Origin: Candidatus Moraniibacteriota bacterium
GTDB taxonomy: Bacteria > Patescibacteriota > Minisyncoccia > Moranbacterales > UBA1568
Reading direction: 5' to 3'
NCBI GenBank assembly: GCA_018061645.1
Contig: JAGOTT010000002.1
Location: forward strand, 23,842-87,841
DNA: 64,000 nucleotides
Shown: piece by piece, positions 13,725-58,655 of the stretch
How the letters are laid out: each line of letters begins with the position of its first letter
Position numbering within the stretch: position 1 is the stretch's first letter
Made by a program: the position numbers and the translations under genes
Notes under the pieces: model-generated
The model's database searches: none
What the model was told of the DNA's origin: nothing
What the model saw: the letters and a program-made list of their open reading frames with translations, nothing else

Positions 13725-13786
13725 AGCTTGTATCGCAGTTTTGATTATTGGAATTCGAAACTTTTTTGGTGATTGGAGCTTGGTAA

Positions 13787-14863
13787 TTGGTTATTGCTGA
13801 ATGTATGTGGCGGATACTTCCTCTTTTGAAAATTATCGGAGTTTTCCTCCTCACGGTATTATTCGTCATTTCCGGATTTTTTGTGTATTTCAATCTGGAA
13901 GGTCCGGAACCACGCGAAGACGTGGAACTCGGCGTGACGTTCTCATATCGGTATGCCGAGTCGCTCGGACTCGATTGGAAGGAGGCCTATGTCGCGATGC
14001 TTGACGATCTCGGTGTTCGGAAACTCCGCATCCCGGTGTACTGGGATCTCGTGGAGAATGATCGCGGTTCATATGACTATTCCGCGGTCGATTGGCAGCT
14101 CGACGAGGCGAGGAGTCGCGGGGCGGAAGTCATCCTGTCCATGGGGCAGCGCGTGCCACGGTGGCCGGAATGTCATATTCCCGGATGGGTGAAGGAGAAT
14201 GGGACCGAATCGTATCGCGAAGCGGAGCTCCTTGGATTTCTCGAGCGGACCATGAGACGGTATATGGAGCGGGAAGAAATCGTCACGTGGCAGATCGAAA
14301 ACGAGCCATTTCTCGTCTTTTTCGGGGAGTGTCCGCCGCTTCGGAGAGGGTTTCTCGACGAGGAGATCGTACTCGTGAAAAGAATCGATCCGTCGAGGCC
14401 GGTCATGCTGACCGATTCCGGGGAATTGTCGATCTGGCTTCCTGCCGCCAAGCGTGCCGATATCTTCGGAACGACGATGTACCGGAAGATATTCAAGCCG
14501 GGATTCGGGTATTTCACGTATCCGCTCGGACCGAATTTCTTCCTTTTCAAGGAGACATTCGTTCGGCTTCTGTCCGATCAGGAACGATTTGTGGTCATCG
14601 AGCTCCAAGCCGAGCCGTGGGCAAGCGGATGGGTCGCGGATGTGCCGATAGCAGAACAATTCCGGACGATGAACCCGGATCTTCTCAGGCAGAATGTGGA
14701 ATATGCGAAGCGAGTCGGTTTTCCGGAGGTATATTTGTGGGGGGTGGAGTGGTGGTATTGGCTCCGGGAGAAGCATGATATGCCGGAGACATGGGATGCC
14801 GCCCGGGAGCTCTTCCGTGATTCCGGTGAAAACGGTATACTTGGAGAAGGAAATAAAACATAG
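13787..14863 (+). CDS. membrane-anchored putative glycoside hydrolase (TIM-barrel, cellulase-like fold)
   Basis: N-terminal TM, then LRIPVYWDLVE...WQIENEP resembling a GH5-type NEP catalytic motif. Confidence 0.5.
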   Translation: MVIAECMWRILPLLKIIGVFLLTVLFVISGFFVYFNLEGPEPREDVELGVTFSYRYAESLGLDWKEAYVAMLDDLGVRKLRIPVYWDLVENDRGSYDYSAVDWQLDEARSRGAEVILSMGQRVPRWPECHIPGWVKENGTESYREAELLGFLERTMRRYMEREEIVTWQIENEPFLVFFGECPPLRRGFLDEEIVLVKRIDPSRPVMLTDSGELSIWLPAAKRADIFGTTMYRKIFKPGFGYFTYPLGPNFFLFKETFVRLLSDQERFVVIELQAEPWASGWVADVPIAEQFRTMNPDLLRQNVEYAKRVGFPEVYLWGVEWWYWLREKHDMPETWDAARELFRDSGENGILGEGNKT

Positions 14864-20675: not shown

Positions 20676-20691
20676 GGTTTCGTGCTTAAAA

Positions 20692-21096
20692 TGTGGAGTT
20701 GATGGGAATCGCACCCATGTCCAAAATGTTTCTTCAAAATAATCTACAAGCTTAGCGTGTCTTGGGTGATACTGAGGGGTAAAAGATACGCGAAATCCCT
20801 TCAGGATCGTTTCTTCGTGCATACGGCTCAAGGCGGGAAAAAACGGAAGTCGCCTCTTGTCGTCCCGATAATATGACACCGAACGTTCCTACCGGGAATC
20901 AGGCGTTCGATGGCTCCGCACTAAACTGAATTAGGCGAGGGCAGGCGCGAAAGAAGGGGCAAACGCTTGCGCGAATGCGTTCTTGGCCTTGGTGATGAAG
21001 TTTGCATTTATCATCGTGGAAGCGAGTTTTTCGATCATACTTCCGAGATCGGCTTGCATATTTTGAATGTGCATCCTGTCGAAACTAGGCAACCCC
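20692..21096 (-). ncRNA. ssrA: tmRNA (ssrA)
   Basis: 5' GGGGTTGCCTAGTTTCGACAGG (canonical tmRNA start). Tag frame GCAAACTTC...GCCTAA = ANFITKAKNAFAQAFAPSFAPALA*. 3' T-arm GGGTGCGATTCCCAT and acceptor CAACTCC pairing with the 5' GGGGUUG. smpB is ~150 nt away on the same strand. Confidence 0.75.
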
Positions 21097-21120
21097 AGAC
21101 ATTGCGGAGCAATGTAATTT

Positions 21121-21240
21121 CTAATAACCAAGCTCCAATTTCCAAACAATGATCAATCACCAAATTGCAAGAACCAAACGGAAACCGATTTGATTTTTGG
21201 AAATTGGAAATTATTTGGAAATTGGAATTTGGTTATTGGT
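21121..21240. repeat. AT-rich palindromic intergenic island (arms ~28 nt: aataaccaagctccaatttccaaacaat / revcomp)
   Basis: The left half is the reverse complement of the right half (ggaaattggaaattatttggaaattggaatttggttattgg). Related islands occur at 1441-1560, 13735-13800, 28441-28500, 46624-46739, 49205-49270 and 54531-54660. Confidence 0.6.
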
Positions 21241-21243
21241 CAT

Positions 21244-21684
21244 TTAATTCAAATGCCTTCGCATTTGAATTTTTGCTTCTCGCTTCTTGATCGTTTCGCG
21301 CTTGTCGTAGGATTTTTTTCCTTTTCCCACGGCGAATTCGAGCTTTATGAGCTGGTTCTTAGTATAGACCCGGATAGGGACGAGTGTCAAGCCTTCTACG
21401 CGTGATTTTCCTATCAATGAGCGGATTTCCGAACGCTTGAGAAGGAGCTTTCTCGGTCTGGCATCCTCGTTCTTGGTATCCTTGTGGGCGTGTTCGTAGC
21501 GTGGAATGAGCGAATTCGTAAGGTAGAGCTCGTTTCCGTGGGTGGTGACGAAGGCGCCTTTCAGGCTGATATGACCTGTTTTCGCCGCCTTTACCTCGTT
21601 TCCGGTCAAAACCAAGCCCGCCTCGTACCGGTCGAGGAGTTCATAATCGAAACTTGCCCGTTTGTTGACAGCGAGTGTTTTCAT
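21244..21684 (-). CDS. smpB: SsrA-binding protein SmpB
   Basis: MKTLAVNKRASFDYELLDRYEAGLVLTGNEVKAAK... Confidence 0.85.
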   Translation of the reverse strand: MKTLAVNKRASFDYELLDRYEAGLVLTGNEVKAAKTGHISLKGAFVTTHGNELYLTNSLIPRYEHAHKDTKNEDARPRKLLLKRSEIRSLIGKSRVEGLTLVPIRVYTKNQLIKLEFAVGKGKKSYDKRETIKKREAKIQMRRHLN

Positions 21685-21762: not shown

Positions 21763-23448
21763 TTGGTGAAAGAAATCATTCGGCAGAAAATCGAAGAGGC
21801 AATCCGGGAGCTTCTTGCCCGGGTCGCTGCGCAAAGCGTTGCGGACAGGTCCGAGGATGGATTGCCGGTTTTTGATGTGTCCAGAGTGAAGGACGAACGG
21901 TTCGGGGATTACTCGACCAATGTCGCGATGATTCTTGCCAAGCTGCTCGGGAAGAGCCCGATGGAGATTGCGGAGCTTATCAGTCAACAGATAACAAATA
22001 ACAATCAACAGGGAATCCCTTTTGAAAAGATAGAAGTGGCGAGGCCGGGGTATATCAATTTTTTCCTGTCGCCTCGATATTTTGAGGGTGTGCTCGGGGA
22101 GGTGATCGGGAAAGGGGAGCAGTTCGGAGACTTGGAAATCGGAAAGGGACTGAAGATCGACAACGAGGTCATTTCGGCGAACCCGACCGGTCCGCTCCAT
22201 CTTGGGAACGCGCGCGGCGGATTCTGTGGGGACGCGCTTTCCCGTATCATGCGCAAAGCCGGGTACGACGTGACGAACGAATACTATGTGAACGACGCGG
22301 GTGAGCAGGTGGAAAAGCTTGGACACAGCGTCTTGAAAGATGAAGAAGCGGTGTATGCGGGCGACTATGTTGATGCATTGCATCAACGGTTAACAGTCAA
22401 CAATGAACAAAAAACAGTAAGGGAAGTCGGTGAGCGATCAGCGGAGCATGTTCTTGAGGAAATGATCAAGCCGACGGTGACGGAGAGGATGGGAATTCCG
22501 GTCGATCTGTGGATTTCCGAGAAGCGCGATATCGTGGACGCGGGACTCGTTGACAAAGCGATTGAAACATTGAAGGGCAAGGGGCTGACCTTCGAGAGCG
22601 AAGGGGCGCTCTGGCTCAAGACGACTGCTTTCGGTGACGACAAGGACCGGGTGCTCGTGAAATCGGATGGATCCCGGACGTATTTCGCGTCCGACTGCGG
22701 ATACATCCTTCACAAGAAAGAACGGGGATTTTCCCGGCTCATCCTTATTCTTGGAGCGGATCATCACGGGTATCGGACACGTCTTCAGGCTGCCGCGTCG
22801 GCGCTCGGCTTTGAGGGAACGTATGATATCTCGTTCGTTCAGCTCGTACGGCTCATGAAGGATGGTAAGGAGGTCCGCATGTCCAAGCGTGCGGGAAACG
22901 TGGTGACGATTGACGAGCTCCTTGAAAAGATTCCGGTCGATGTCGCGCGGTTCTTCTTTCTTATGTACTCACCCGATACACACATGAATTTCGACCTCGG
23001 ACTTGCGGAAGAACGATCCGCCAAGAACCCGGTTTACTATGTCCAGTACGCGCACGCGCGTCTCGCAAGCATTCTTCGCAAGGCGGAGGAGGCGGGGCTG
23101 GATTCCCGTTTTCACGGGAATGACAAAGAGAAGGATGGGAATCTGGATTTTTCTCTGCTCGCGCATCCGAAGGAGCGGGCGATTCTCCGGGAGCTCGCGT
23201 TCTTTCCGGAGCTCGTCGAAGAGGCGGCTACGGAGCGCGCGCCGCATAGACTCCCGCAGTACGCGATGCGGCTCGCGGACAAACTCCACTCGTTCTATGA
23301 CGAATGCAAGGTGATCGATCCGGAAAACAGGGAACTTTCGAAGGCGCGCCTCGCGCTCATCTCCGCGACGAAGATTGTCCTCAAAGAAACGCTCGGGCTG
23401 ATGGGTGTCTCGGCTCCGGAGCGGATGGAATCTAATGAGGATAAATGA
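21763..23448 (+). CDS. argS: arginine--tRNA ligase
   Basis: Class I HLGNARGG and KMSKR motifs. Two heptamer-array in-frame insertions (21981-22015; 22384-22425). Confidence 0.9.
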   Translation: MVKEIIRQKIEEAIRELLARVAAQSVADRSEDGLPVFDVSRVKDERFGDYSTNVAMILAKLLGKSPMEIAELISQQITNNNQQGIPFEKIEVARPGYINFFLSPRYFEGVLGEVIGKGEQFGDLEIGKGLKIDNEVISANPTGPLHLGNARGGFCGDALSRIMRKAGYDVTNEYYVNDAGEQVEKLGHSVLKDEEAVYAGDYVDALHQRLTVNNEQKTVREVGERSAEHVLEEMIKPTVTERMGIPVDLWISEKRDIVDAGLVDKAIETLKGKGLTFESEGALWLKTTAFGDDKDRVLVKSDGSRTYFASDCGYILHKKERGFSRLILILGADHHGYRTRLQAAASALGFEGTYDISFVQLVRLMKDGKEVRMSKRAGNVVTIDELLEKIPVDVARFFFLMYSPDTHMNFDLGLAEERSAKNPVYYVQYAHARLASILRKAEEAGLDSRFHGNDKEKDGNLDFSLLAHPKERAILRELAFFPELVEEAATERAPHRLPQYAMRLADKLHSFYDECKVIDPENRELSKARLALISATKIVLKETLGLMGVSAPERMESNEDK

Positions 23449-23492: not shown

Positions 23493-23772
23493 GATTCCTC
23501 GGCTGTGTTCGGAATGATAATGAGAGATAATGCGGTGCTAACAGGGAAATAAAAACGGAACCTATGCCGAGAAAACGGGGTCAGGATGAGGAAATCCTTC
23601 TTTTCGCGATGAAGGTCGTGGGACCAGTGGCGGTCTTCTTCATCGCCGCCGCAGTGACGGATCTGACGCATGTCATCTCGTGGGCGTCCTCGGGTCCTAT
23701 CGACTCCGCTCTGTATACCGTTTCTGGTGTCGTCGGCTGGCTGTTTTCTACGTCGTCATTGTGATAAACGAT

Positions 23773-24623: not shown

Positions 24624-24707
24624 AATGCTGAATTCCGCTACACTTTCCGTACAAATCGAAAGGCGATGACGAGGTTATCACCTCTGAGCTTCGGGAAGAA
24701 ACGATTC

Positions 24708-24776
24708 TGTCATCCTGAGCAAAGCGAAGGATCTCGCAAGAAAGACGAGATTCCTCGATAAACTCGGAATGACAAT
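24708..24776. repeat. E-element copy 1: TGTCATCCTGAGcaaagCGAAGGATCTCG-loop-CGAGATTCCTCGAtaaaCTCGGAATGACAA
   Basis: Outer arms GTCATCCTGAG/CTCGGAATGAC and an inner hairpin. Four further full or partial copies occur (49284-49352, 58567-58616, 23491-23522, 55479-55512). Confidence 0.6.
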
Positions 24777-24960
24777 CGGACTAGACCCCGACGGGTATGC
24801 CCGTAACAGCGTGAAATGAGGCGATAGTCATCATCTTGGTCATTGGGACTTGGTGATCGGTTATTGCGAAGCGAAGGTGGTACCACGTCATCGACGTCCT
24901 TCTCCGTTATTCGGGGCGGGTCGTTTTTTATTGTCAGATGGTTTTATGGTCGGTATGGTT

Positions 24961-25341
24961 ATGGAACAGGAAAGATTTCTCACTCTTAATAAAATTACTG
25001 CTTACAAAAAATCGTTTGCACTTTCAAATGATATCTGGGGTCTTGTCGGGAAGTGGGATGAATTTTCAAAAAGGACGATAGGATCCCAATTTGTACGGGC
25101 TATTGATTCCGTTTCCGCAAACATTGCCGAAGGATTCGGGAGATATGAGAAGAAAGATAAAGTACAATTTTATAGGATAGCGCGTGGGTCCGCATATGAA
25201 TCGCTTGATTGGCTGGAAAAATCAAAAAGAAGAAAGCTTCTTTCTGAAAAAGAATATGGACGCATCTTCTTGATCCTGAAAGAGCTGCCGAAGGATATCA
25301 ATACGTTGATAAAATATACCAATGATCATCTGGCGACCTGA
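24961..25341 (+). CDS. four-helix-bundle protein (23S rRNA intervening-sequence protein / Avd-like family)
   Basis: ITAYKKSFALSNDIWGLV...ANIAEGFGRYEKKDKVQFYRIARGSAYESLDWLE. GC is ~40% against ~58% in the flanks. Start refined to ATG 24961. Confidence 0.6.
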   Translation: MEQERFLTLNKITAYKKSFALSNDIWGLVGKWDEFSKRTIGSQFVRAIDSVSANIAEGFGRYEKKDKVQFYRIARGSAYESLDWLEKSKRRKLLSEKEYGRIFLILKELPKDINTLIKYTNDHLAT

Positions 25342-25375: not shown

Positions 25376-28300
25376 ATGTTCAAAAAAGTCGATCCGAAGG
25401 TGAGTTTTCCGAAGATGGAGGAGGAAATCCTCAAATACTGGGAGGACAACAAGATATTCGAGAAGTCGGTGTCGAAGGACGCGCCGCAGGGCGATTTCGT
25501 GTTTTATGAAGGGCCGCCGACGGCGAATGGGAAGCCGGGGCTTCATCACGTGCTCGCGCGGTCGTTCAAGGACATCATCCCGCGATACAAGACGATGAAA
25601 GGCTACCGGGTGGCGCGCAAGGCGGGGTGGGATACGCACGGGCTCCCGGTTGAGCTTCAGGTGGAAAAGGCGCTCGGACTCAAGAATAAACAGGATATCG
25701 AGAATATCGTCCCGGGCGATGCACGAGCGAGCGTCATCGAATTCAATAGGCGGTGCAAAGAATCCGTATGGGAGTATCGTGATCTCTGGGAGAAATTGAC
25801 GCGACGTATGGGCTACTGGGTGGATATGGAGCATCCGTATGTCACCTATGAGAACAGCTACATCGAATCAGTCTGGTGGCAGATAGCGCAAATCGCCGAA
25901 CTCAAAGATGAGAAAGGTGAAAGTTTGCTGTATCGTGGGCATAAGGTTGTGCCGTATTGCTATCGCTGCGGCACCGCACTTTCATCGCATGAAGTCGCGC
26001 AGGGGTATCAGACCGTGAAGGACAATTCGGTGTATGTGAAATTCGAAGTCAAAGAGCAAGGAGCAGGGAGTAAGAAACAAGGAAAGACCTATCTGCTAGC
26101 ATGGACTACTACGCCTTGGACTTTGCCGGGGAATGTGGCTTTGGCGGTGAATCCGAGTATTGAGTACGTTATTCGAGAAATTTTGAAAGGAGATCATGCT
26201 GGAGAAACATATATTACCGCCTCTGAAAGGCAAGCTGATGTTTATGCGTATTCCGGGATATTTCCGAAAGATGAATTAAAAGAAGGGGAAAATCCTGATG
26301 CTTGGGCAAAGACGAGAATTATAACCGGGAAAGAGTTGATTGGCCTCAATTATGAACCACTCTACGAAACTGACGAAAAAAATAATCGAGAGGGATTATA
26401 CCGCGTGATTGCTGGAGATTTCGTGACGACCGATTCGGGGACGGGAGTTGTGCACATCGCGCCGGCGTTCGGGGAAGATGACGCCAACGTCGGTCGGGAG
26501 AACGGGTTGCCGACACTTCATACCGTGGATCTCGAGGGGAAAGTCTCCGCTGATGTTCCTGGGAAGGGGATCTCGGTCAAGAAGAAGAATGACAAGAACC
26601 GGTATGCGGTCGACGACCTGATCATCGCGGACCTCAAGGAATGCGGACTGCTGTTCAAGGAGGAGGAATACGAACACGAATATCCGTTCTGCTGGCGGTG
26701 CGACACACCACTCATCTACTTCGCGAAGCCGTCGTGGTTCATCGCGATGAGCGCGGTGCGCGAGGAGCTGATGAAGAATGCCGAGGCGATCAGCTGGGTT
26801 CCGGAAAATATCAAGGAAGGACGATTCGGGGAGTGGCTTCGCGGTATCCGGGACTGGGCGATCTCGCGCGACCGGTACTGGGGGACACCGATCCCGATCT
26901 GGGAATGTGAAGGACAGACAACGGGTAACAGTCAACAAAAAACAGGATGCGGAAAGAGAAAAGTCATTTCTTCCATCAAGGAGCTTGAGGAATTATCCGG
27001 ACAGAAGTTAGAAGATGTGCATAAGCCGTATATCGACGATGTCGAGTGGACGTGTGAGTGCGGCAAGGGAACGATGCGGCGGACGCCGGAGGTGCTCGAC
27101 GTGTGGTTCGATTCCGGTGCGATGCCTCTGGCGCAGTTTTCGTATCCGGCTGGGTCGACGGACGATGAGAAGGTGATGATCGAGACCGGGAAATCCTTCC
27201 CGGCGGGTTTCATCTCTGAGGCGGTCGATCAGACGCGTGGCTGGTTCTACACGCTCCATGCGATCGCGACACTGCTTCATAAAGCCGGGGCGGTGCCGAA
27301 GGGGAACGCGTACGACAACGTGATCTGTCTCGGACACGTGCTCGACGGACAGGGTAAGAAGATGTCGAAGTCGAAAGGGAACGTGATCGATCCGTTCAAG
27401 ATGTTCGACGAATACGGTGCCGACATGCTCCGGTGGGCGCTCTTTTCTGTCAATCAGCCGGGACTGCCGAAACGTTTCGATGCCAAAGTGATGCGTGACG
27501 TCCAGAACCGCGTGTTCCGGATGCTGTGGAACTCGTATTCGTTCTTCATGACGTATGCTTCGATTGATGATTGGAAACCGAAGGAAAGCGTCGGTAAGTC
27601 GGAGCACATCCTCGATCGTTGGATCTTGGCTGACTGCAACTATCTGGTGCATGAAGTGAAATATGATCTCGACCGGTATGACGTGTATTCGGCCACGCAG
27701 ACGATCGAGAAGTTCATAGATAATCTCTCTAACTGGTATATCCGTCGGAGTCGGAACCGGTTTTGGAAAAATGAGAACGATGACGACAAGGAACACGCCT
27801 ATCAGACGTTGTGTGGAGTTCTTTTGACTCTTTCGAAATTGATGGCCCCGTTCACGCCGTTTCTTTCGGAAGAGATTTATCGGAACCTGACAGGAGAAGA
27901 TTCGGTGCACCTCGCGAATTGGCCGGAGGAAACGGAGCTTGAGGGTGGGGAGCTGCGGAAAGAGATGTTGTCGGCTCGTCTGCTTGTGACGCAGGGACTT
28001 AAGATGCGCTCTGAGGCGGGAGTGAAAGTGCGACAGCCGCTTTCGGGATTCTCCATCGGAGATATCGAGTTGCGCGATGAACTGAAGGAAATTCTCGCGG
28101 ATGAACTGAATGTGAAAACAGTTGTCGGCGGTAAGCCGCTGGGACTCGATACCGAAATTACCCCCGAACTCAGGCTCGAAGGGCAGGCGCGGGAAATCAT
28201 CCGCGCGGTGCAGGAAGGACGAAAGAAGGCGGGGTTCAACGTGGAGGACCGCATCAGCCTCGGCTACGAGGGAATGTCAGCAGTCTTTGCTGACGAGATA

Positions 28301-28435
28301 CTCCGGAACCTCATCGCCGGTGAGACGCTCGCGGAGGGCGGCATCACCGAAGGCGAGCTTGCTGATGCCGACTTCACCGAGTCCGTCGATCTCGACGGGG
28401 AGGCGTTCGCATTTTGGTTGAAACGTGGAAAGTGA
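25376..28435 (+). CDS. ileS: isoleucine--tRNA ligase
   Basis: PTANGKPGLHHV (HIGH) and KMSKSKGN motifs; 1019 aa. Heptamer insertion at 26914-26948. Confidence 0.9.
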   Translation: MFKKVDPKVSFPKMEEEILKYWEDNKIFEKSVSKDAPQGDFVFYEGPPTANGKPGLHHVLARSFKDIIPRYKTMKGYRVARKAGWDTHGLPVELQVEKALGLKNKQDIENIVPGDARASVIEFNRRCKESVWEYRDLWEKLTRRMGYWVDMEHPYVTYENSYIESVWWQIAQIAELKDEKGESLLYRGHKVVPYCYRCGTALSSHEVAQGYQTVKDNSVYVKFEVKEQGAGSKKQGKTYLLAWTTTPWTLPGNVALAVNPSIEYVIREILKGDHAGETYITASERQADVYAYSGIFPKDELKEGENPDAWAKTRIITGKELIGLNYEPLYETDEKNNREGLYRVIAGDFVTTDSGTGVVHIAPAFGEDDANVGRENGLPTLHTVDLEGKVSADVPGKGISVKKKNDKNRYAVDDLIIADLKECGLLFKEEEYEHEYPFCWRCDTPLIYFAKPSWFIAMSAVREELMKNAEAISWVPENIKEGRFGEWLRGIRDWAISRDRYWGTPIPIWECEGQTTGNSQQKTGCGKRKVISSIKELEELSGQKLEDVHKPYIDDVEWTCECGKGTMRRTPEVLDVWFDSGAMPLAQFSYPAGSTDDEKVMIETGKSFPAGFISEAVDQTRGWFYTLHAIATLLHKAGAVPKGNAYDNVICLGHVLDGQGKKMSKSKGNVIDPFKMFDEYGADMLRWALFSVNQPGLPKRFDAKVMRDVQNRVFRMLWNSYSFFMTYASIDDWKPKESVGKSEHILDRWILADCNYLVHEVKYDLDRYDVYSATQTIEKFIDNLSNWYIRRSRNRFWKNENDDDKEHAYQTLCGVLLTLSKLMAPFTPFLSEEIYRNLTGEDSVHLANWPEETELEGGELRKEMLSARLLVTQGLKMRSEAGVKVRQPLSGFSIGDIELRDELKEILADELNVKTVVGGKPLGLDTEITPELRLEGQAREIIRAVQEGRKKAGFNVEDRISLGYEGMSAVFADEILRNLIAGETLAEGGITEGELADADFTESVDLDGEAFAFWLKRGK

Positions 28436-28485
28436 TATTGGAAATTCCGAAATTCAATCATGAAAAATTGATTGGAAATTGAAAA

Positions 28486-29223
28486 ATGGGAATTGAGAAT
28501 TCTTCTGTGGAATACCGTTACACTGCCATCGTGCTGAAGAAGAAGGAGGTCGGGGAGACCGATCGCCTGTACACGTTTTTGACGCGCGAGGGTGGAAAGA
28601 TCCGCGCGAAGGCGGTCGGGGTCCGCAAGCCCCATGCGCGTCTCGCGGCATCACTTGAGACGCTGATGCTCTCCGATATCACGGTCGTAAGGGGAAGGGG
28701 GATGGGGCGCATTGCCGGAGCGATCACGGAGGAAGCGTATCTTGGCCTCCGCGGCGATCTTGACGCGCTCTCGCTCGTGGTCGAAGCGGCGGATATCGTC
28801 GATTCGCTTGTCGGGCTCGAACAACCCGACGAAAGCCTTTTCGCGTTGTTTCTCGAGTATCTTTCTCTGCTCGACGAACTTGCGGGAGCGGGAGACGCGG
28901 AATGCACACCGCTTGTGTCCGAGGGATTCTACGTGAAGCTCCTCTCCGAGCTTGGCTATCATCTCGAGACGTCTCTCTGCGCGGTGTCGGGGGATCGACT
29001 CGGATCCGGAAGCGAATGTTTCTTCAGTCCGGATGCGGGAGGAATCGTGCTCGCGGATCATGCCGACCGGCATTCGATCGCGGTGAGTGGCAACGCCGTG
29101 AAGCTTCTGCGACTGTTCCTCGGAAATCGTCTCGGATCACTCCGGAAGGTCCGTGTTTCGGATGCGGATATCGCGGAGCTCGGACGTATGCGGAAATTGT
29201 TCCTTCGGCATATTCTGCGTTGA
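28486..29223 (+). CDS. recO: DNA repair protein RecO
   Basis: N-terminal OB-fold region YRYTAIVLKKKEVGETDRLYTFLTREGGKIRAKAVGVRK, typical of RecO. Confidence 0.6.
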   Translation: MGIENSSVEYRYTAIVLKKKEVGETDRLYTFLTREGGKIRAKAVGVRKPHARLAASLETLMLSDITVVRGRGMGRIAGAITEEAYLGLRGDLDALSLVVEAADIVDSLVGLEQPDESLFALFLEYLSLLDELAGAGDAECTPLVSEGFYVKLLSELGYHLETSLCAVSGDRLGSGSECFFSPDAGGIVLADHADRHSIAVSGNAVKLLRLFLGNRLGSLRKVRVSDADIAELGRMRKLFLRHILR

Positions 29224-40673: not shown

Positions 40674-41612
40674 ATGATCGACATCCATACCCATCTTCAT
40701 TTCAAGGACTACGACGCGGATCGCGACGCGGTGATCGCGCGTGCGCGTGAAGCTGGGGTGGAGAAGATGATCCTGGTCGGGACGGACCTCGAATCGTCGC
40801 GCACGGCAATCGCACTTTCGGAGAAGCATGATTTTCTGTTCGCATCGGTCGGCATCCACCCTCACTTTTTCAACGAAGTTGAAAAAGAATTTCCAATTTC
40901 CAATTTCCAATTTCCAAACAAATCCCAATTTCCAATTTCCAAATTTCAAACGGAAATCAAAGGAATAACGGAGCTAGCGAAACATCCGAAGGTCGTGGCG
41001 ATCGGGGAGTGTGGGCTGGATTACTTCGTACGCAACGAGCAAGGAGCAACGAACAATGAGCAGGGAGGAGCAATCAGCAATCAACAGAAGAAAATCCAAG
41101 AAGAAGGATTTTTGGCACAGATGGAAATCGCGAAGGAACTCGGTCTGCCGCTCATCATCCACACTCGCCCCTCCGTTGGCACGATGGATGCCTACGAAGA
41201 TGTTTTCGAGATTCTGAAAAATCATTTATCACTCATCCCGCATCCCGCATCTGCTTTCATCCTCCACTGTTATCAGGGTGACACGGAAATCACGAAGAAA
41301 CTTCTCGGACTGCCGAACGCGCATTTTTCTTTTGCGGGAAGTGTCACCTATCCGGTAAAAAAATCGCTTATTGGAACGAAGGATGATTCCTCGGAGGTCG
41401 TAAAACTTGTACCGATGGAGCGAATTTTTGTCGAGACGGATTGCCCGTATCTTGCGCCGCAGCCGATGCGCGGGAGTCGCAACGAGCCGGCGTATGTCAC
41501 GATGACCGCGGAGCGGATGGCGGAAACGAAGGGGACGGATGTCAAGGAACTGGAATCGACCATAAACCGGGTCTTTTCAAGGGTTTTCGGAAGGAGTAAG
41601 ATGGAAACGTAA
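40674..41612 (+). CDS. TatD-family metal-dependent DNase with two low-complexity insertions
   Basis: IDIHTHLHF N-terminal histidine motif, then the conserved GECGLDY and further catalytic His/Asp motifs. Insertions FPISNFQFPNKSQFPISKFQ and NEQGATNNEQGGAISNQQ. Confidence 0.75.
   Translation: MIDIHTHLHFKDYDADRDAVIARAREAGVEKMILVGTDLESSRTAIALSEKHDFLFASVGIHPHFFNEVEKEFPISNFQFPNKSQFPISKFQTEIKGITELAKHPKVVAIGECGLDYFVRNEQGATNNEQGGAISNQQKKIQEEGFLAQMEIAKELGLPLIIHTRPSVGTMDAYEDVFEILKNHLSLIPHPASAFILHCYQGDTEITKKLLGLPNAHFSFAGSVTYPVKKSLIGTKDDSSEVVKLVPMERIFVETDCPYLAPQPMRGSRNEPAYVTMTAERMAETKGTDVKELESTINRVFSRVFGRSKMET
40891..40950 (+). repeat. CCAATTT heptamer tandem array (~9 units) in-frame inside tatD
   Basis: ttccaat ttccaat ttccaat ttccaaa caaatcc caatttc caatttc caaattt caaa. 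Confidence 0.85.
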
Positions 41613-46623: not shown

Positions 46624-46739
46624 TCATTTTCCAATTCCCAGTAAGTTTTCATTTGTACGAATTCCTGGTTATTTTTGGAAATTGTTTCATTGATGATTCA
46701 TTGGTAATTGGAAATTGGTAATTGGAAATTGTTTCAAGT
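46624..46739. repeat. AT-rich island with ggtaattggaaattg repeats (atpH-atpA spacer)
   Basis: cattggtaattggaaattggtaattggaaattg; same CCAATTTCC family as 21121-21240. Confidence 0.5.
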
Positions 46740-48242
46740 ATGGCAAACACACTCATCGAGGAGCTGAAGCGGCAGATCGAATCCTTCGATCACGAGACGA
46801 AGAAGGAGAAGATTGGCCGGGTGATGGAAACGGGCGACGGCGTCGCGCGCCTCTCCGGTCTCTCGGACGTCGCGTCGTCGGAGATCGTCGAATTCGGAAG
46901 TGGGGCGATCGGCGTCGCGCAGAACCTCGAGGAATCCGAAGTCGGTGTGATGATTCTTTCCGGCGCGGAGGGCGTGAAAGAGGGCGAGACGGCGAAGGGA
47001 ACAGGACGACTGCTTTCCATCCCGGTGTCGGAAGGTATCGTCGGCCGGGTCGTTGATCCGCTTGGGGTACCGCTCGACGGACGGGGCGAGATCGTGGGCG
47101 AGAAGAAGCTCATGCCGATAGAAAAAGTGGCCCCCGGAGTCATCGCGCGCGAGTCGGTCAAGAAACCGCTTCAGACCGGTATCAAGGCGATCGATGCGCT
47201 CATTCCCGTCGGTCGCGGGCAGCGTGAACTCATCATCGGTGATCGGCAGACCGGCAAGACCGCGGTCGCGATCGATACGATCGTGAACCAGAAGGGGCAG
47301 GATGTTATCTGTATCTACGTCGCCATCGGACAGAAGGAATCCAAGGTCGCGCGCATCATGGGTGAATTGTCGAAGCGTGGCGCGATGGACTACACGGTCG
47401 TCGTGGTCGCCGGCGCGTCGAAGCCGGCCGCACTCTCGTTTCTCGCGCCGTATGCGGGAGCGGCGATCGGTGAATATTTCATGGAACAGGGGAAGGATGT
47501 GCTCGTGATCTATGATGATCTTTCCAAGCATGCCTGGGCGTATCGGCAGATCGCGCTCATCCTGCGCCGTCCGCCGGGACGCGAGGCGTATCCGGGCGAT
47601 GTGTTCTACCTCCACTCGCGGCTTCTTGAGCGGAGCGCCAAACTCTCCGCGGAAGAAGGCGGTGGATCGCTCACCGCGCTTCCGATTATCGAGACGCAAG
47701 CGGGTGACGTGTCGGCATATATCCCGACGAACGTTATCTCGATCACCGACGGTCAGATTTATCTCGAAAGCGATCTCTTCTACAAGGGTATCCGCCCGGC
47801 ACTCAACGTCGGATTGTCGGTCTCGCGCGTGGGATCGGCGGCACAGATCAAGGCGATGAAGCAGGTCGCAGGAACCTTGCGGCTCGACCTGGCGCAGTTC
47901 CGCGAGATGGAAGCCTTCGCACAGTTCGGTTCCGACCTCGACGAAGGGACGCGGAAACTCATCGATCGCGGGCGTCGCGCGGTGGAGCTCCTGAAACAGC
48001 CGCAATACGCGCCGCTCAAAGTCGAAGAAGAAGTTGCGGTGCTCTATGCGCTCTCTCGCGGACATCTCGACACCGTTCCGGCGGAAAAGATCCGCGAGTG
48101 GGAGACGGGAGTACTCTCGTATCTCCGGACCGAAGGCGAGGACGCGCTTGCCGGTATCCGTGAGAAGAAGGAACTGACCGAGGAAGTGGAGAAGGTGTTG
48201 AAGGAAAGAATAGAAGAATTCAACAAACGATTTCAGATTTAA
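46740..48242 (+). CDS. atpA: ATP synthase F1 subunit alpha
   Basis: GDRQTGKT Walker A. Start refined to ATG 46740 ([10 protein letters not shown]). Confidence 0.9.
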
Positions 48243-49204: not shown

Positions 49205-49283
49205 TTTCAAGAAATTTCAAATGACAAATTCCAAAAACCAAACAAATCACAGATTCCAAATTCAAAAACACAAAATGTAGAAG

Positions 49284-49352
49284 TGTCATCCTGAGTGAAA
49301 CGAAGAATCCCGGTGTGAGAACGGGATTCCTCGACAGACTCGGAATGGCAAG
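49284..49352. repeat. E-element copy 2
   Basis: TGTCATCCTGAGtgaaaCGAAGAATCCCGgtgtgagaaCGGGATTCCTCGAcagaCTCGGAATGGCAA. The inner stem is perfect and shows compensatory changes relative to copy 1. Confidence 0.6.
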
Positions 49353-53864: not shown

Positions 53865-54530
53865 ATGAAAACGAGCATACCGGATTTTTTGCCGCTTGAT
53901 CGGCCGGTCATCATCTTCGACCTTGAGACGACCGGACTCACGCCGGGCGAGGATCGCATCGTGGAAATAGCCTATGAGAAGATCCTTCCATCCGGAGAGA
54001 TCCAGTCATCCGTGGCCCGGATCAACCCGGGAAAATCCATTCCCGAGGATGCCAAACGCGTGCACGGCATAAGCGACGAGGATGTGAAGGATTCGCCGTC
54101 GTTCGCCAAACTCGCGTACGAACTGTGGAGCGTCTTCGACGGGGCGGATGTCGGTGGGTTCAACGTGCTCGGGTTCGATTTGCCGTTTCTGCGAGGGGAA
54201 TTCTCGACCGTCGGGAAAAATTTCGAATTTTCCCAGAAGCGCGTGCTCGACGCGAAGATCCTCTATCACAAGATCGTCCCGCGTGACAATTTCGCACCTC
54301 GTAACCTTTCCGCCGCATACAGGCTCTATTGCGGAAAGACTCACGACAGCGCGCATACCGGCGCGGGGGATGTCCGCGTGACGGTCGAGATTCTCGAGCA
54401 GATCCTGAAGCGGTATCCGGAGCTCCGGAACTGGGATACGATCATGGGGCTGAACGGACAAAAGAAGCTGCTCGAATCCGCGAAAAACGAGCATGCGCCG
54501 CTTTTGGAATCGACCGGAACACTATTCTAA
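53865..54530 (+). CDS. DEDDh 3'-5' exonuclease (DNA polymerase III epsilon-like)
   Basis: VIIFDLETTGL Exo I motif and later H-x4-D. Confidence 0.7.
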   Translation: MKTSIPDFLPLDRPVIIFDLETTGLTPGEDRIVEIAYEKILPSGEIQSSVARINPGKSIPEDAKRVHGISDEDVKDSPSFAKLAYELWSVFDGADVGGFNVLGFDLPFLRGEFSTVGKNFEFSQKRVLDAKILYHKIVPRDNFAPRNLSAAYRLYCGKTHDSAHTGAGDVRVTVEILEQILKRYPELRNWDTIMGLNGQKKLLESAKNEHAPLLESTGTLF

Positions 54531-54660
54531 AATTTCAAGTTTTCAATTTCTCATTTCTAAACAATTTTCAATGATTCAATTTTAAAATTTGAGAATTAAG
54601 GAATTTGATCATTGTTTGAAAATTAAGAATCAGAAATTGGAAATTCCGAGTGGTGAGGCT
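54531..54660. repeat. AT-rich palindromic island with 7-nt periodicity (AATTTCA ... TGAAAAT), core CAAACAATGATCA
   Basis: The left half is approximately the reverse complement of the right half. It shares the CAATGATCAA core with 21150-21165. Confidence 0.55.
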
Positions 54661-55478: not shown

Positions 55479-55512
55479 TTGTCATTCTGATCGAAGTGAA
55501 GAATCTAGGATC
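55479..55512. repeat. E-element partial copy (5' module) abutting folD start
   Basis: TGTCATTCTGATCGAAGTGAAGAATCTAGGATCG. Confidence 0.4.
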
Positions 55513-56386: not shown

Positions 56387-56469
56387 TGCCGGGAGAGAGA
56401 CTCGAACTCTCATGCTGTTGCCAGCGCGGGATTTTGAGTCCCGTGCGTCTACCATTCCGCCATCCCGGC
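56387..56469 (-). tRNA. tRNA-Leu (anticodon CAA), class II long variable arm, CCA not encoded
   Basis: Reverse complement GCCGGGATGGCGGAATGGTAGACGCACGGGACTCAAAATCCCGCGCTGGCAACAGCATGAGAGTTCGAGTCTCTCTCCCGGCA. 7-bp acceptor, D-arm GGCGGAATGGTAGACGC as in tRNA-Leu, anticodon loop CTCAAAA, T-loop TTCGAGT. Confidence 0.85.
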
Positions 56470-58566: not shown

Positions 58567-58616
58567 CGTCATCCTGAGTCCGCCAAAGGCGGATAGGCTC
58601 CGCGAAGAATCCCGAG
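58567..58616. repeat. E-element copy 3 (5' module + hairpin TCCGCCaaaGGCGGA) fused to the Gly-rich gene promoter repeat
   Basis: CGTCATCCTGAGtccgccaaaggcggataggctccgcGAAGAATCCCGAG. Confidence 0.45.
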
Positions 58617-58627
58617 TTTTCCGGCAG

Positions 58628-58655
58628 TTGCAAAAAAATCAAATCGTGGGATAAT
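58628..58655 (+). promoter_or_regulatory. promoter TTGCAA-16-TGgGATAAT (copy 2)
   Basis: Identical ~50-nt block as at 10812-10863. Confidence 0.45.

Follow-up and report, generated by a model that had tools for sequence, protein, structure and literature searches.

We analysed a 64-kb stretch of a Candidatus Moranbacteria genome (Candidate Phyla Radiation (CPR)/Patescibacteria), called here the window, whose positions serve as coordinates throughout, and found in it a family of short hairpin-forming repeats. Two inverted arms around a short spacer make a doublet of ~68 nt which, as single-stranded DNA or RNA, forms one hairpin of ~30 bp, and single arms are solo or decayed copies. The members form one repeat family with a common fold, they are present or absent at orthologous sites of relatives, one of them sits within a T-box leader, and the arm, with covariation inside it, recurs across phyla. 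The copies are probably non-coding, palindromic, insertional DNA repeats of a non-autonomous kind, similar to the repetitive extragenic palindromes (REPs), to the doublets they form (REPINs) and to bacterial interspersed mosaic elements (BIMEs). A preliminary description of this DNA had proposed a hairpin-forming repeat family, and that family is real, comprising two doublets, one clear single arm and two degraded ones.

Copies in the window and orthologous sites in relatives

The doublets, arms and related modules of the window are as follows:

24708-24776, plus strand: doublet copy 1, with 5' arm 24709-24733 (GTCATCCTGAGCAAAGCGAAGGATC), 15-nt self-complementary spacer 24734-24748 and 3' arm 24749-24773 (GATTCCTCGATAAACTCGGAATGAC)
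49284-49352, plus strand: doublet copy 2, with arms 49285-49309 and 49325-49349, in the atpG-atpD intercistronic spacer
55481-55505, plus strand: single arm GTCATTCTGATCGAAGTGAAGAATC, after the bacA (uppP) stop and before the folD start
58568-58611, plus strand: interrupted arm, its loop expanded by an extra hairpin of ~22 nt (TCCGCCAAAGGCGGATAGGCTC, 58579-58600), beginning 7 nt past the parB stop
23493-23518, minus strand: degenerate single arm, oriented as a 3' arm (GATTCCTCGGCTGTGTTCGGAATGAT on the plus strand), 45 nt past the argS stop
23101-23124, minus strand: related hairpin module in frame inside argS, GATTCCCGTTTTCACGGGAATGAC on the plus strand, 14.6 bits

The two full copies (24708-24775 and 49284-49351, 68 nt each) are 76% identical, as members of one repeat family, and altogether the window holds 7 arms in 64 kb. 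Scanning it with the arm pattern GTCATYCTGAGN5CGAAGRATC, with three mismatches or fewer, gave 5 matches where 0.06 would be expected by chance, namely the four doublet arms and the single arm at 55481-55505. With an arm model, the two arms of copy 1 scored 42.1 and 35.3 bits and the single arm at 55481-55505 scored 39 bits, the latter being part of the training set of the model, while the arm at 23493-23518 is marginal alone (15.1 bits, E = 0.32). The genes folD and argS had been named as neighbours of the partial copies, and correctly so. The copy near parB had also been said to adjoin a promoter, and a promoter-like site (TTGCAA-16-GATAAT, with TG before the second hexamer) does directly follow that arm at 58628-58655 and is conserved in the relatives L250 and L251 (loci of relatives are given as L and a number). 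An open reading frame (ORF) listed with its start at 58654 overlaps the -10 hexamer, and its true start is probably further downstream. The small hairpin nested in the loop of the same arm (58579-58600) consists of TCCGCCAAAGGCGGA plus TAGGCTC, and the orthologous arm of L250 is uninterrupted.

For both doublets, folding predicts a three-segment hairpin of ~30 bp, with -31.2 kcal/mol (z = -4.7) for copy 1 and -32.1 kcal/mol (z = -4.9) for copy 2, and none of 200 shuffled sequences folded as well. The minus strands fold equally well (-33.1 kcal/mol for copy 1 and -29.5 kcal/mol for copy 2), with no strand asymmetry, and the wobble and mismatch positions are symmetric between the strands of doublets. 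A two-hairpin, cruciform-like fold of the window copies was rejected, at +5 to -8 kcal/mol against -28 to -32 kcal/mol for the long hairpin (calculated as RNA). Between copy 1 and copy 2, where compensatory base changes had been reported before, there is exactly one double change, from T-A to C-G in the first pair (the base) of the spacer stem, together with two one-sided changes that leave pairing possible (G.U to A-U and U-A to U.G). The compensatory evidence between the two full copies is real but thin, and strong covariation comes only from the wider family.

To find out where copies are present or absent we compared the window with eight relatives at the ileS locus and with four from atp to parB. 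The DNA of the window is about 89-90% identical to L002 and L250, about 82-95% identical to L003 and less so to the others. Copy 1 lies at the apex of Stem II of the ileS T-box, and this apex carries no element in four relatives (L003, L246, L004 and L249). In L003, which is 95% identical to the window over 154 nt directly downstream of the insertion point, the sequence is ...GAAGAAAU-CCGAAAGGAG-ACUAGACCCC, compared with GAUUC, the 69-nt element and AAUCGG in the window; the apices of the other three measure 10-16 nt. L247 has a different insert of 50 nt at the apex, and in L002 the same outer frame encloses a doublet built from another type of arm, TGTCATCC-CGCACTTGATGCG-GGATC ... GATTCC-GGGTCAAGCCC-GGAATGACAA. 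Between atpG and atpD, which encode the gamma and beta subunits of ATP synthase, an identical 69-nt doublet is found in the window and L250 only, and the spacers of L251, L252 and L253 are short and unrelated. The bacA-folD arm is likewise restricted to the window and L250, where it has decayed at 4 of 25 positions between conserved flanks; since bacA and folD are 2-3 nt apart in L251, L252 and L253, about 50 nt were gained in the window. At the 3' site of parB, L250 has an intact arm (39.6 bits) and L251 an arm of the GTCATTCCCG...CGGGAATC type (GTCATTCCCGTCTACGCGGGAATC), and the arm at 23493-23518 is identical at the orthologous site of L002 and absent from L003, L004 and L247. Because sites are empty in relatives (four at the T-box apex, three at atpG-atpD and three at bacA-folD), the copies are insertions. 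Target-site duplications flanking the copies, an idea raised in the preliminary description, were looked for, and none was visible at the filled sites (T-box, atpG-atpD, bacA-folD, post-parB and in-gene).

Hairpin modules also occur in frame inside genes. The GATTCCCGTTTTCACGGGAATGAC module encodes a 10-codon insert in argS (...SRFHGNDKEKD...) that is common to the window and L003 and absent from the arginyl-tRNA synthetase (ArgRS) of L004, and the isoleucyl-tRNA synthetase (IleRS) of L002 has a 21-aa insert encoded by a GTCATTCCCGCG.../...CCCGAGGATGAC doublet (L002 5123-5237, in ileS). These in-frame inserts, of 10 aa in ArgRS and 21 aa in IleRS, are absent from other relatives. The L002 ileS doublet gave a sub-threshold match to FtrB, a small RNA (sRNA) of Francisella (38 bits, against a gathering score of 66).

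The leader that hosts copy 1 was recognized as a T-box, a riboswitch that senses tRNA:

24657-24904, plus strand: ileS T-box leader, Rfam RF00230, 38.2 bits, E = 6e-5 for the whole window and 4e-7 locally

This score is below the RF00230 gathering score of 93, orthologues score 34-50 bits (three full-length loci scored), and the low values reflect a truncated Stem I and inserts. The leader contains a K-turn-like GA motif, Stem II, a IIA/B region and the T-box sequence AAGGUGGUACCACG; the truncated Stem I carries the isoleucine specifier AUC, followed by A, in its terminal loop, and after a terminator hairpin at 24903-24920 comes a U-run (to 24930). The T-box is conserved upstream of ileS in the loci of six relatives. 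Copy 1 occupies an 89-nt insert that the Rfam model places in the apical part of Stem II, and in the predicted fold it lengthens this stem coaxially, with the conserved T-box motifs around it all intact. The working part of Stem II is its mid-stem S-turn, and the Stem II region measures between ~10 and 200 nt (PMC7583486, a review), so that tolerance of an insert at the apex is plausible, and the insertion in the T-box may well be neutral. A search of the full-text literature found no paper linking T-boxes with CPR or Patescibacteria. The expanded Stem III of this leader (24825-24865) is formed by low-complexity TTGGNAATTGG / CCAATTTCC repeats, as it is in L003, L247 and L249. The same repeats occur in many intergenic regions of the window, in both orientations, at 1420-1549, 13755-13809, 21111-21249, 28461-28504, 40884-40968, 46676-46742, 49209-49274 and 54528-54646.

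The IleRS (25376-28435) matches a protein from a Candidatus Moranbacteria metagenome-assembled genome at 100% identity, and its relatives all belong to Moranbacteria/Patescibacteria. Between the T-box terminator and ileS lies a PF05635 gene (24946-25341; 23S rRNA intervening-sequence protein (IVP) or Avd-like four-helix bundle). Copy 1 had been described as lying upstream of an Avd-like gene; the neighbour is correct, but its proximity is coincidental, and a link between the two was rejected when a jackhmmer search through all ORFs of about 240 loci with modules gave no more than 2 of PF05635. PF05635 genes are sporadic inside operons of close relatives (L001 146-847; L248 653-1213; L250 11392-11775 and 18623-19006), those of L250 sit elsewhere with no module beside them, and in other relatives the slot between the T-box terminator and ileS is empty or contains an HD_4 gene or a 217-aa ORF. 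The small PF05635 genes have the look of mobile insertions in their own right. Upstream of its T-box, L002 has an extra gene for a 277-aa nucleotidyltransferase (NTP_transf_2, L002 1240-2073), and in its leader Stem I is longer and Stem III differs. The region of the ileS leader is a rearrangement hot spot. The idea of small GIY-YIG nuclease genes flanked by such hairpins found no support, as the single GIY-YIG gene of L251 has no adjoining arm. Elsewhere in the window, a tmRNA gene (108 bits, 20691-21096) is on the minus strand amid protein genes nearly all on the plus strand, and an 83-nt tRNA with a long variable arm (56387-56469) is also on the minus strand.

The arm across bacteria

The arm is a sharply bounded unit of ~27 nt, T-GTCATYCTGAGC-GNA-GCGAAGRATC-T, with an invariant GTCAT head, and beyond T(-1) and T(+1) conservation falls at once to background. 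A scan pattern with 18 fixed and 2 two-fold degenerate positions detected it in at least 120 genome stretches of genome_contigs, a collection with one genome per species, and in at least 15 phyla, where about 4 matches would be expected by chance (our own arithmetic, for 596 Gb and both strands). At least 120 stretches of uncultivated viral contigs (IMG/VR) carry it as well. Among the matches listed are Acidobacteriota, Chloroflexota, Bacteroidota, Patescibacteria, Nitrospirota, Nitrospinota, Gemmatimonadota and Planctomycetota, and further Verrucomicrobiota, Omnitrophota, Bacillota, Bdellovibrionota, Desulfobacterota and Pseudomonadota (Alpha- and Gammaproteobacteria). Isolates of Bacteroidota bearing the arm belong to Lacinutrix, Flavobacterium and Mucilaginibacter, and the host loci range from 29 to 70% GC.

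Folded on itself, the arm would have a stem of 5 bp (ATYCT/AGRAT), then a tandem G.A/A.G and two G-C pairs that close a GNA loop of three bases. The pair formed by Y6 and R22 is Watson-Crick in 294 of 299 non-redundant arms, almost evenly divided between TA (148) and CG (146), the remainder being TG (2) and CA (3). When arms that had not been chosen by the pattern were added to the alignment, 4 of the 7 stem pairs were found changed on both sides, and 94% of the cells were paired, compared with 21-50% when the partner was slid. It is in the wider family that covariation becomes clear. The loop consensus is C (95%), G (80%), N, A (89%) and G (91%), with N spread over all four bases. Family-wide, this loop appears to match the GCGNAGC DNA mini-hairpin, from which the arms of the window itself deviate (GCAAAGC, GTGAAAC and TCGAAGT). 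The GCGNAGC mini-hairpin is extraordinarily stable, with a melting temperature of about 76 °C, occurs at phage G4-type and RSF1010 ssiA priming sites, and resists both single-stranded DNA-binding protein (SSB) and nucleases (PMC13037366).

About one third of the 299 instances have an inverted partner 49-139 nt away (103 of 299 within 115 nt), and the rest, about two thirds, are single arms. In 28 canonical doublets, the C-G or T-A allele was the same in both arms in 14 cases and different in the other 14, as expected for independence, and the conserved constraint is therefore each arm's own hairpin. The arms of a doublet are predicted to pair as one long hairpin, as had been described, and this is the minimum-energy fold of 27 of the 28 canonical doublets and of both window copies, but the pairing that is conserved lies within each arm.

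Copies are mostly intergenic, and lie between convergent genes twice as often as between divergent ones. Single arms between co-directional genes show a weak orientation bias (46 sense, 30 antisense); in either orientation they lie at comparable distances from the starts and stops of genes, with a modest excess directly behind sense stop codons. Taken as a test for a function as RNA, these counts and the likeness of the distance profiles do not decide the matter. A BLAST search with a canonical doublet gave no match among the INPHARED phages and one weak match among the PLSDB plasmids, a full-text search for the arm sequence returned no relevant paper, and a metagenome scan for doublets with the spacer geometry of the window gave a single, unrelated high-GC match and was uninformative. 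All-against-all clustering of the ORFs within 1.5 kb of ~300 arms revealed no recurrent family except phage structural proteins of related viral contigs; the lack of a recurrent neighbouring protein is expected for a non-autonomous element.

Nature of the element

A small self-folding arm with a conserved head, occurring singly and in inverted doublets, mainly extragenic, non-coding and without target duplication, argues for an element of the REP/REPIN/BIME type. The unit would spread as a folded single-stranded DNA hairpin, with the enzyme supplied in trans, in a mobilisation that may resemble that of REPINs moved by a REP-associated tyrosine transposase (RAYT) or that of insertion sequences (IS) with IS200/IS605-type Y1 transposases. 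The latter leave no target duplication. Copies would persist only where an extra hairpin is harmless, as at stem apices, in intercistronic spacers and in linker loops of proteins. In the T-box, the transcribed hairpin would merely lengthen Stem II coaxially, and in an operon spacer it may, as a side effect, hinder mRNA decay or serve as a site of processing.

Several observations weigh against this interpretation. The arms of the window itself do not have the canonical GNA loop (they read GC-AAA-GC and GT-GAA-AC), and their self-hairpins are weak by nearest-neighbour energies. In the 64 kb analysed we identified no mobilising transposase or RAYT, although a RAYT present in single copy would be missed by a test of neighbours within 1.5 kb. 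REP/REPIN families normally have tens to hundreds of copies in a genome, are lineage-specific and vertically inherited, and are thought to be partners of domesticated transposases; their cognate RAYT gene lies in the same genome, usually between repeats. An arm present across many phyla is not what a RAYT-type system predicts, and lineage specificity clearly fails here. At the T-box, filled and empty sites differ by the replacement of a small apical hairpin and not by a clean interruption, so the insertion junctions cannot be read. Two orthologous sites carry different arm types, the Stem II apex in the window and L002, and the 3' side of parB in the window and L250 as opposed to L251; the types (CTGAG...CGAAG versus CCCGC...GCGGG) are swapped within identical outer frames (TGTCATCC...GGATC and GATTCC...GGAATGACAA), which suggests repeated insertion at a hot spot or conversion between repeat types. 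At copy 2 the window and L250, whose genomes are about 89% identical, show 100% identity, and this could mean selection on the transcript; its downstream flank is also 97% identical, however, so the signal is not significant. Finally, no identical copies were found at non-orthologous sites, for which the one metagenome scan gave a single unrelated match, so there is no direct sign of recent transposition.

An origin as a structured RNA under selection, either a small RNA, as the preliminary description had offered, or a cis-acting element (for instance a hairpin between cistrons that serves processing or stabilisation, or a functional lengthening of Stem II), seems unlikely to us. The strong predicted folds, the one compensatory pair between the copies and the perfect conservation of copy 2 in L250 would fit it, and so would the location of all window copies on the transcribed strand, in a region where almost all genes are on the plus strand, the slight excess of sense single arms, also near sense stop codons, and the weak match of the related L002 doublet type to FtrB. 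Against these, both strands fold equally well, with strand-symmetric wobbles and mismatches, the arms of doublets do not covary family-wide, so that the long hairpin is not what is conserved, and the GNA loop is a DNA mini-hairpin motif and not a typical stable RNA loop. Copy 1 is dispensable, since four relatives have a working-looking T-box without it, and the bacA-folD arm has decayed in L250 while its flanks have not. Neither doublet is placed like a free-standing sRNA gene, copy 1 being embedded in the ileS T-box leader and copy 2 in the atp operon, and a scan covering copy 1 found no promoter or terminator of its own. Rfam searches gave no match to the element in the whole window at gathering thresholds and at E ≤ 0.1, or around copy 1 at E ≤ 10, and none at E ≤ 1 for eight loci with canonical doublets from other phyla, the searches yielding nothing beyond generic microRNA-type hairpin noise. 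With the embedded contexts, the equal folding of both strands, the weak orientation bias of the arms and the lack of an Rfam family, a dedicated small-RNA gene is not supported.

The other suggestion made at the outset, a miniature inverted-repeat transposable element (MITE) with hairpin-dependent mobility, is supported as far as mobility is concerned, given the presence or absence of copies at three orthologous sites, though in a REPIN-like sense rather than that of a classical MITE. A classical MITE would be an internally deleted IS whose terminal inverted repeats are recognised by a DDE transposase and which leaves target-site duplications, and we regard it as very improbable. The inverted-repeat architecture, the small size and the presence/absence polymorphism agree with it, as do the in-frame insertions in genes, which have been reported for some MITEs and for Rickettsia palindromic elements (RPEs) (PMC10969869). 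No filled site shows a duplication, however, the surroundings (1.5 kb) of about 300 module instances contain no recurring parent IS or transposase family, the ~2/3 of matches that are single 27-nt arms are not explained by a transposase that depends on terminal inverted repeats, and each arm is itself a hairpin with internal covariation. A third explanation, also hard to credit if slightly less so, would make the arm a functional motif of DNA or RNA, conserved for its use by shared machinery, be it a single-strand priming or SSB-excluding signal, a site for a recombinase or nucleoid protein, or a barrier to 3'-end exonucleases. Near-identity in at least 15 phyla and over 29-70% GC, with sharp boundaries, is hard to explain by vertically inherited selfish DNA and speaks for such a role, as do the enrichment just after stop codons, the priming sites with SSB- and nuclease-resistant GCGNAGC mini-hairpins (PMC13037366) and the recombinase/phage integration sites formed by Neisseria dRS3 repeats, which have a similar frame (PMC1797815). 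On the other side, copies are sporadic among close relatives, single arms decay, copies occur in coding regions and in a riboswitch stem where they have no obvious role as a signal, and the element is absent from cultured-phage genomes (INPHARED) and almost absent from plasmids (PLSDB). We know of no partner protein for the arm, which also counts against this explanation.

Returning to the REPIN-like reading, we put forward tentatively, as a possibility that we rate well short of even, a broader extension of it. The unit T-GTCATYCTGAGC-GNA-GCGAAGRATC-T might be a pan-bacterial insertional DNA mini-hairpin not described before, which phages or other vectors would probably have carried from phylum to phylum and which a widely distributed enzyme that recognises folded single strands would copy within genomes. 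Sister types (dRS3-like, GTCATTCCCGCG...CGCGGGAATC), which share the GTCAT...ATC frame, could replace one another at a site, and the unit would seed REPIN-like doublets that colonise riboswitch stems and protein loops, even in very small CPR genomes.

Consequences and relation to known repeat families

For annotation, these hairpins should not be called sRNA genes, and translated copies of the element (...VILSEAKDL..., ...RFHGNDK...) turn up as spurious small ORFs and as odd inserts in genuine proteins. A natural insert of ~70 nt at the apex of T-box Stem II, with the motifs intact, points to a part of the riboswitch that tolerates large inserts, knowledge of use for riboswitch engineering; the locus also documents a T-box with truncated Stem I and transcription-terminator read-out in a CPR bacterium. 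An arm conserved base for base across at least 15 phyla and viral contigs is at odds with the picture of REPs as lineage-specific, and it suggests either that a mobilising or recognising activity, so far unrecognised, is widely shared or that horizontal spread is frequent.

Small non-autonomous inverted repeats that are co-transcribed with their neighbours and can alter mRNA structure are also found among the MITEs Correia/NEMIS, ERIC, BOX and RUP, and a review of MITEs notes potential T-box-like motifs in BOX elements (PMC10969869). These MITEs have terminal inverted repeats, target duplications and a presumed DDE transposase, whereas the elements described here show no duplication, occur as single arms and have a hairpin internal to the arm. 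With RPEs they share in-frame insertion at tolerated surface positions of proteins, together with non-coding locations (PMC10969869), but RPEs are about 100-150 bp long and confined to Rickettsia, and the present elements measure 25-70 nt, are unrelated in sequence and have a pan-bacterial arm.

A closer resemblance in sequence is offered by the dRS3 repeats of Neisseria, which have the form ATTCCC-N8-GGGAAT and are recombinase/phage integration sites (PMC1797815). Sister arms in relatives of the window have this ATTCCC-N8-GGGAAT form, for example GTCATTCCCGCGAAGGCGGGAATC in L002 ileS and GTCATTCCCGTCTACGCGGGAATC in L251, and dRS3/NIME, FtrB and the sister arms share the GTCAT...ATC frame with the arms of the window. 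The core of the latter, unlike that of dRS3, is CTGAG...CGAAG with tandem G.A and not CCCGCG, and we saw no arrays, whereas dRS3 units flank RS cassettes in long arrays at which phage integrate. The match to FtrB (Rfam RF02748) is below the gathering score and concerns the L002 ileS copy only, the window copies giving no match.

The closest parallel is with REP/REPIN/BIME elements, which occur as single units and inverted doublets whose hairpin is kept by compensatory changes (PMC3116915, PMC3337134). Like them, the present elements are imperfect palindromes of ~25 nt (25-27 nt for the arm) with a conserved head, GTC here and GTAG in REPs, and they occur as single units and as doublets with a long hairpin, the window having inverted doublets plus at least three single arms. 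They are mostly extragenic, often at the 3' ends of genes or between cistrons, and have neither target duplications nor coding capacity. They differ from REP/REPIN in their unrelated sequence, in an arm nearly identical across at least 15 phyla and viral contigs, and in having copies inside genes and a riboswitch. The REPIN-like elements of this genome are probably a variant of REP/REPIN-type repeats, in which the insertion into a riboswitch and the unexpectedly universal arm stand out.

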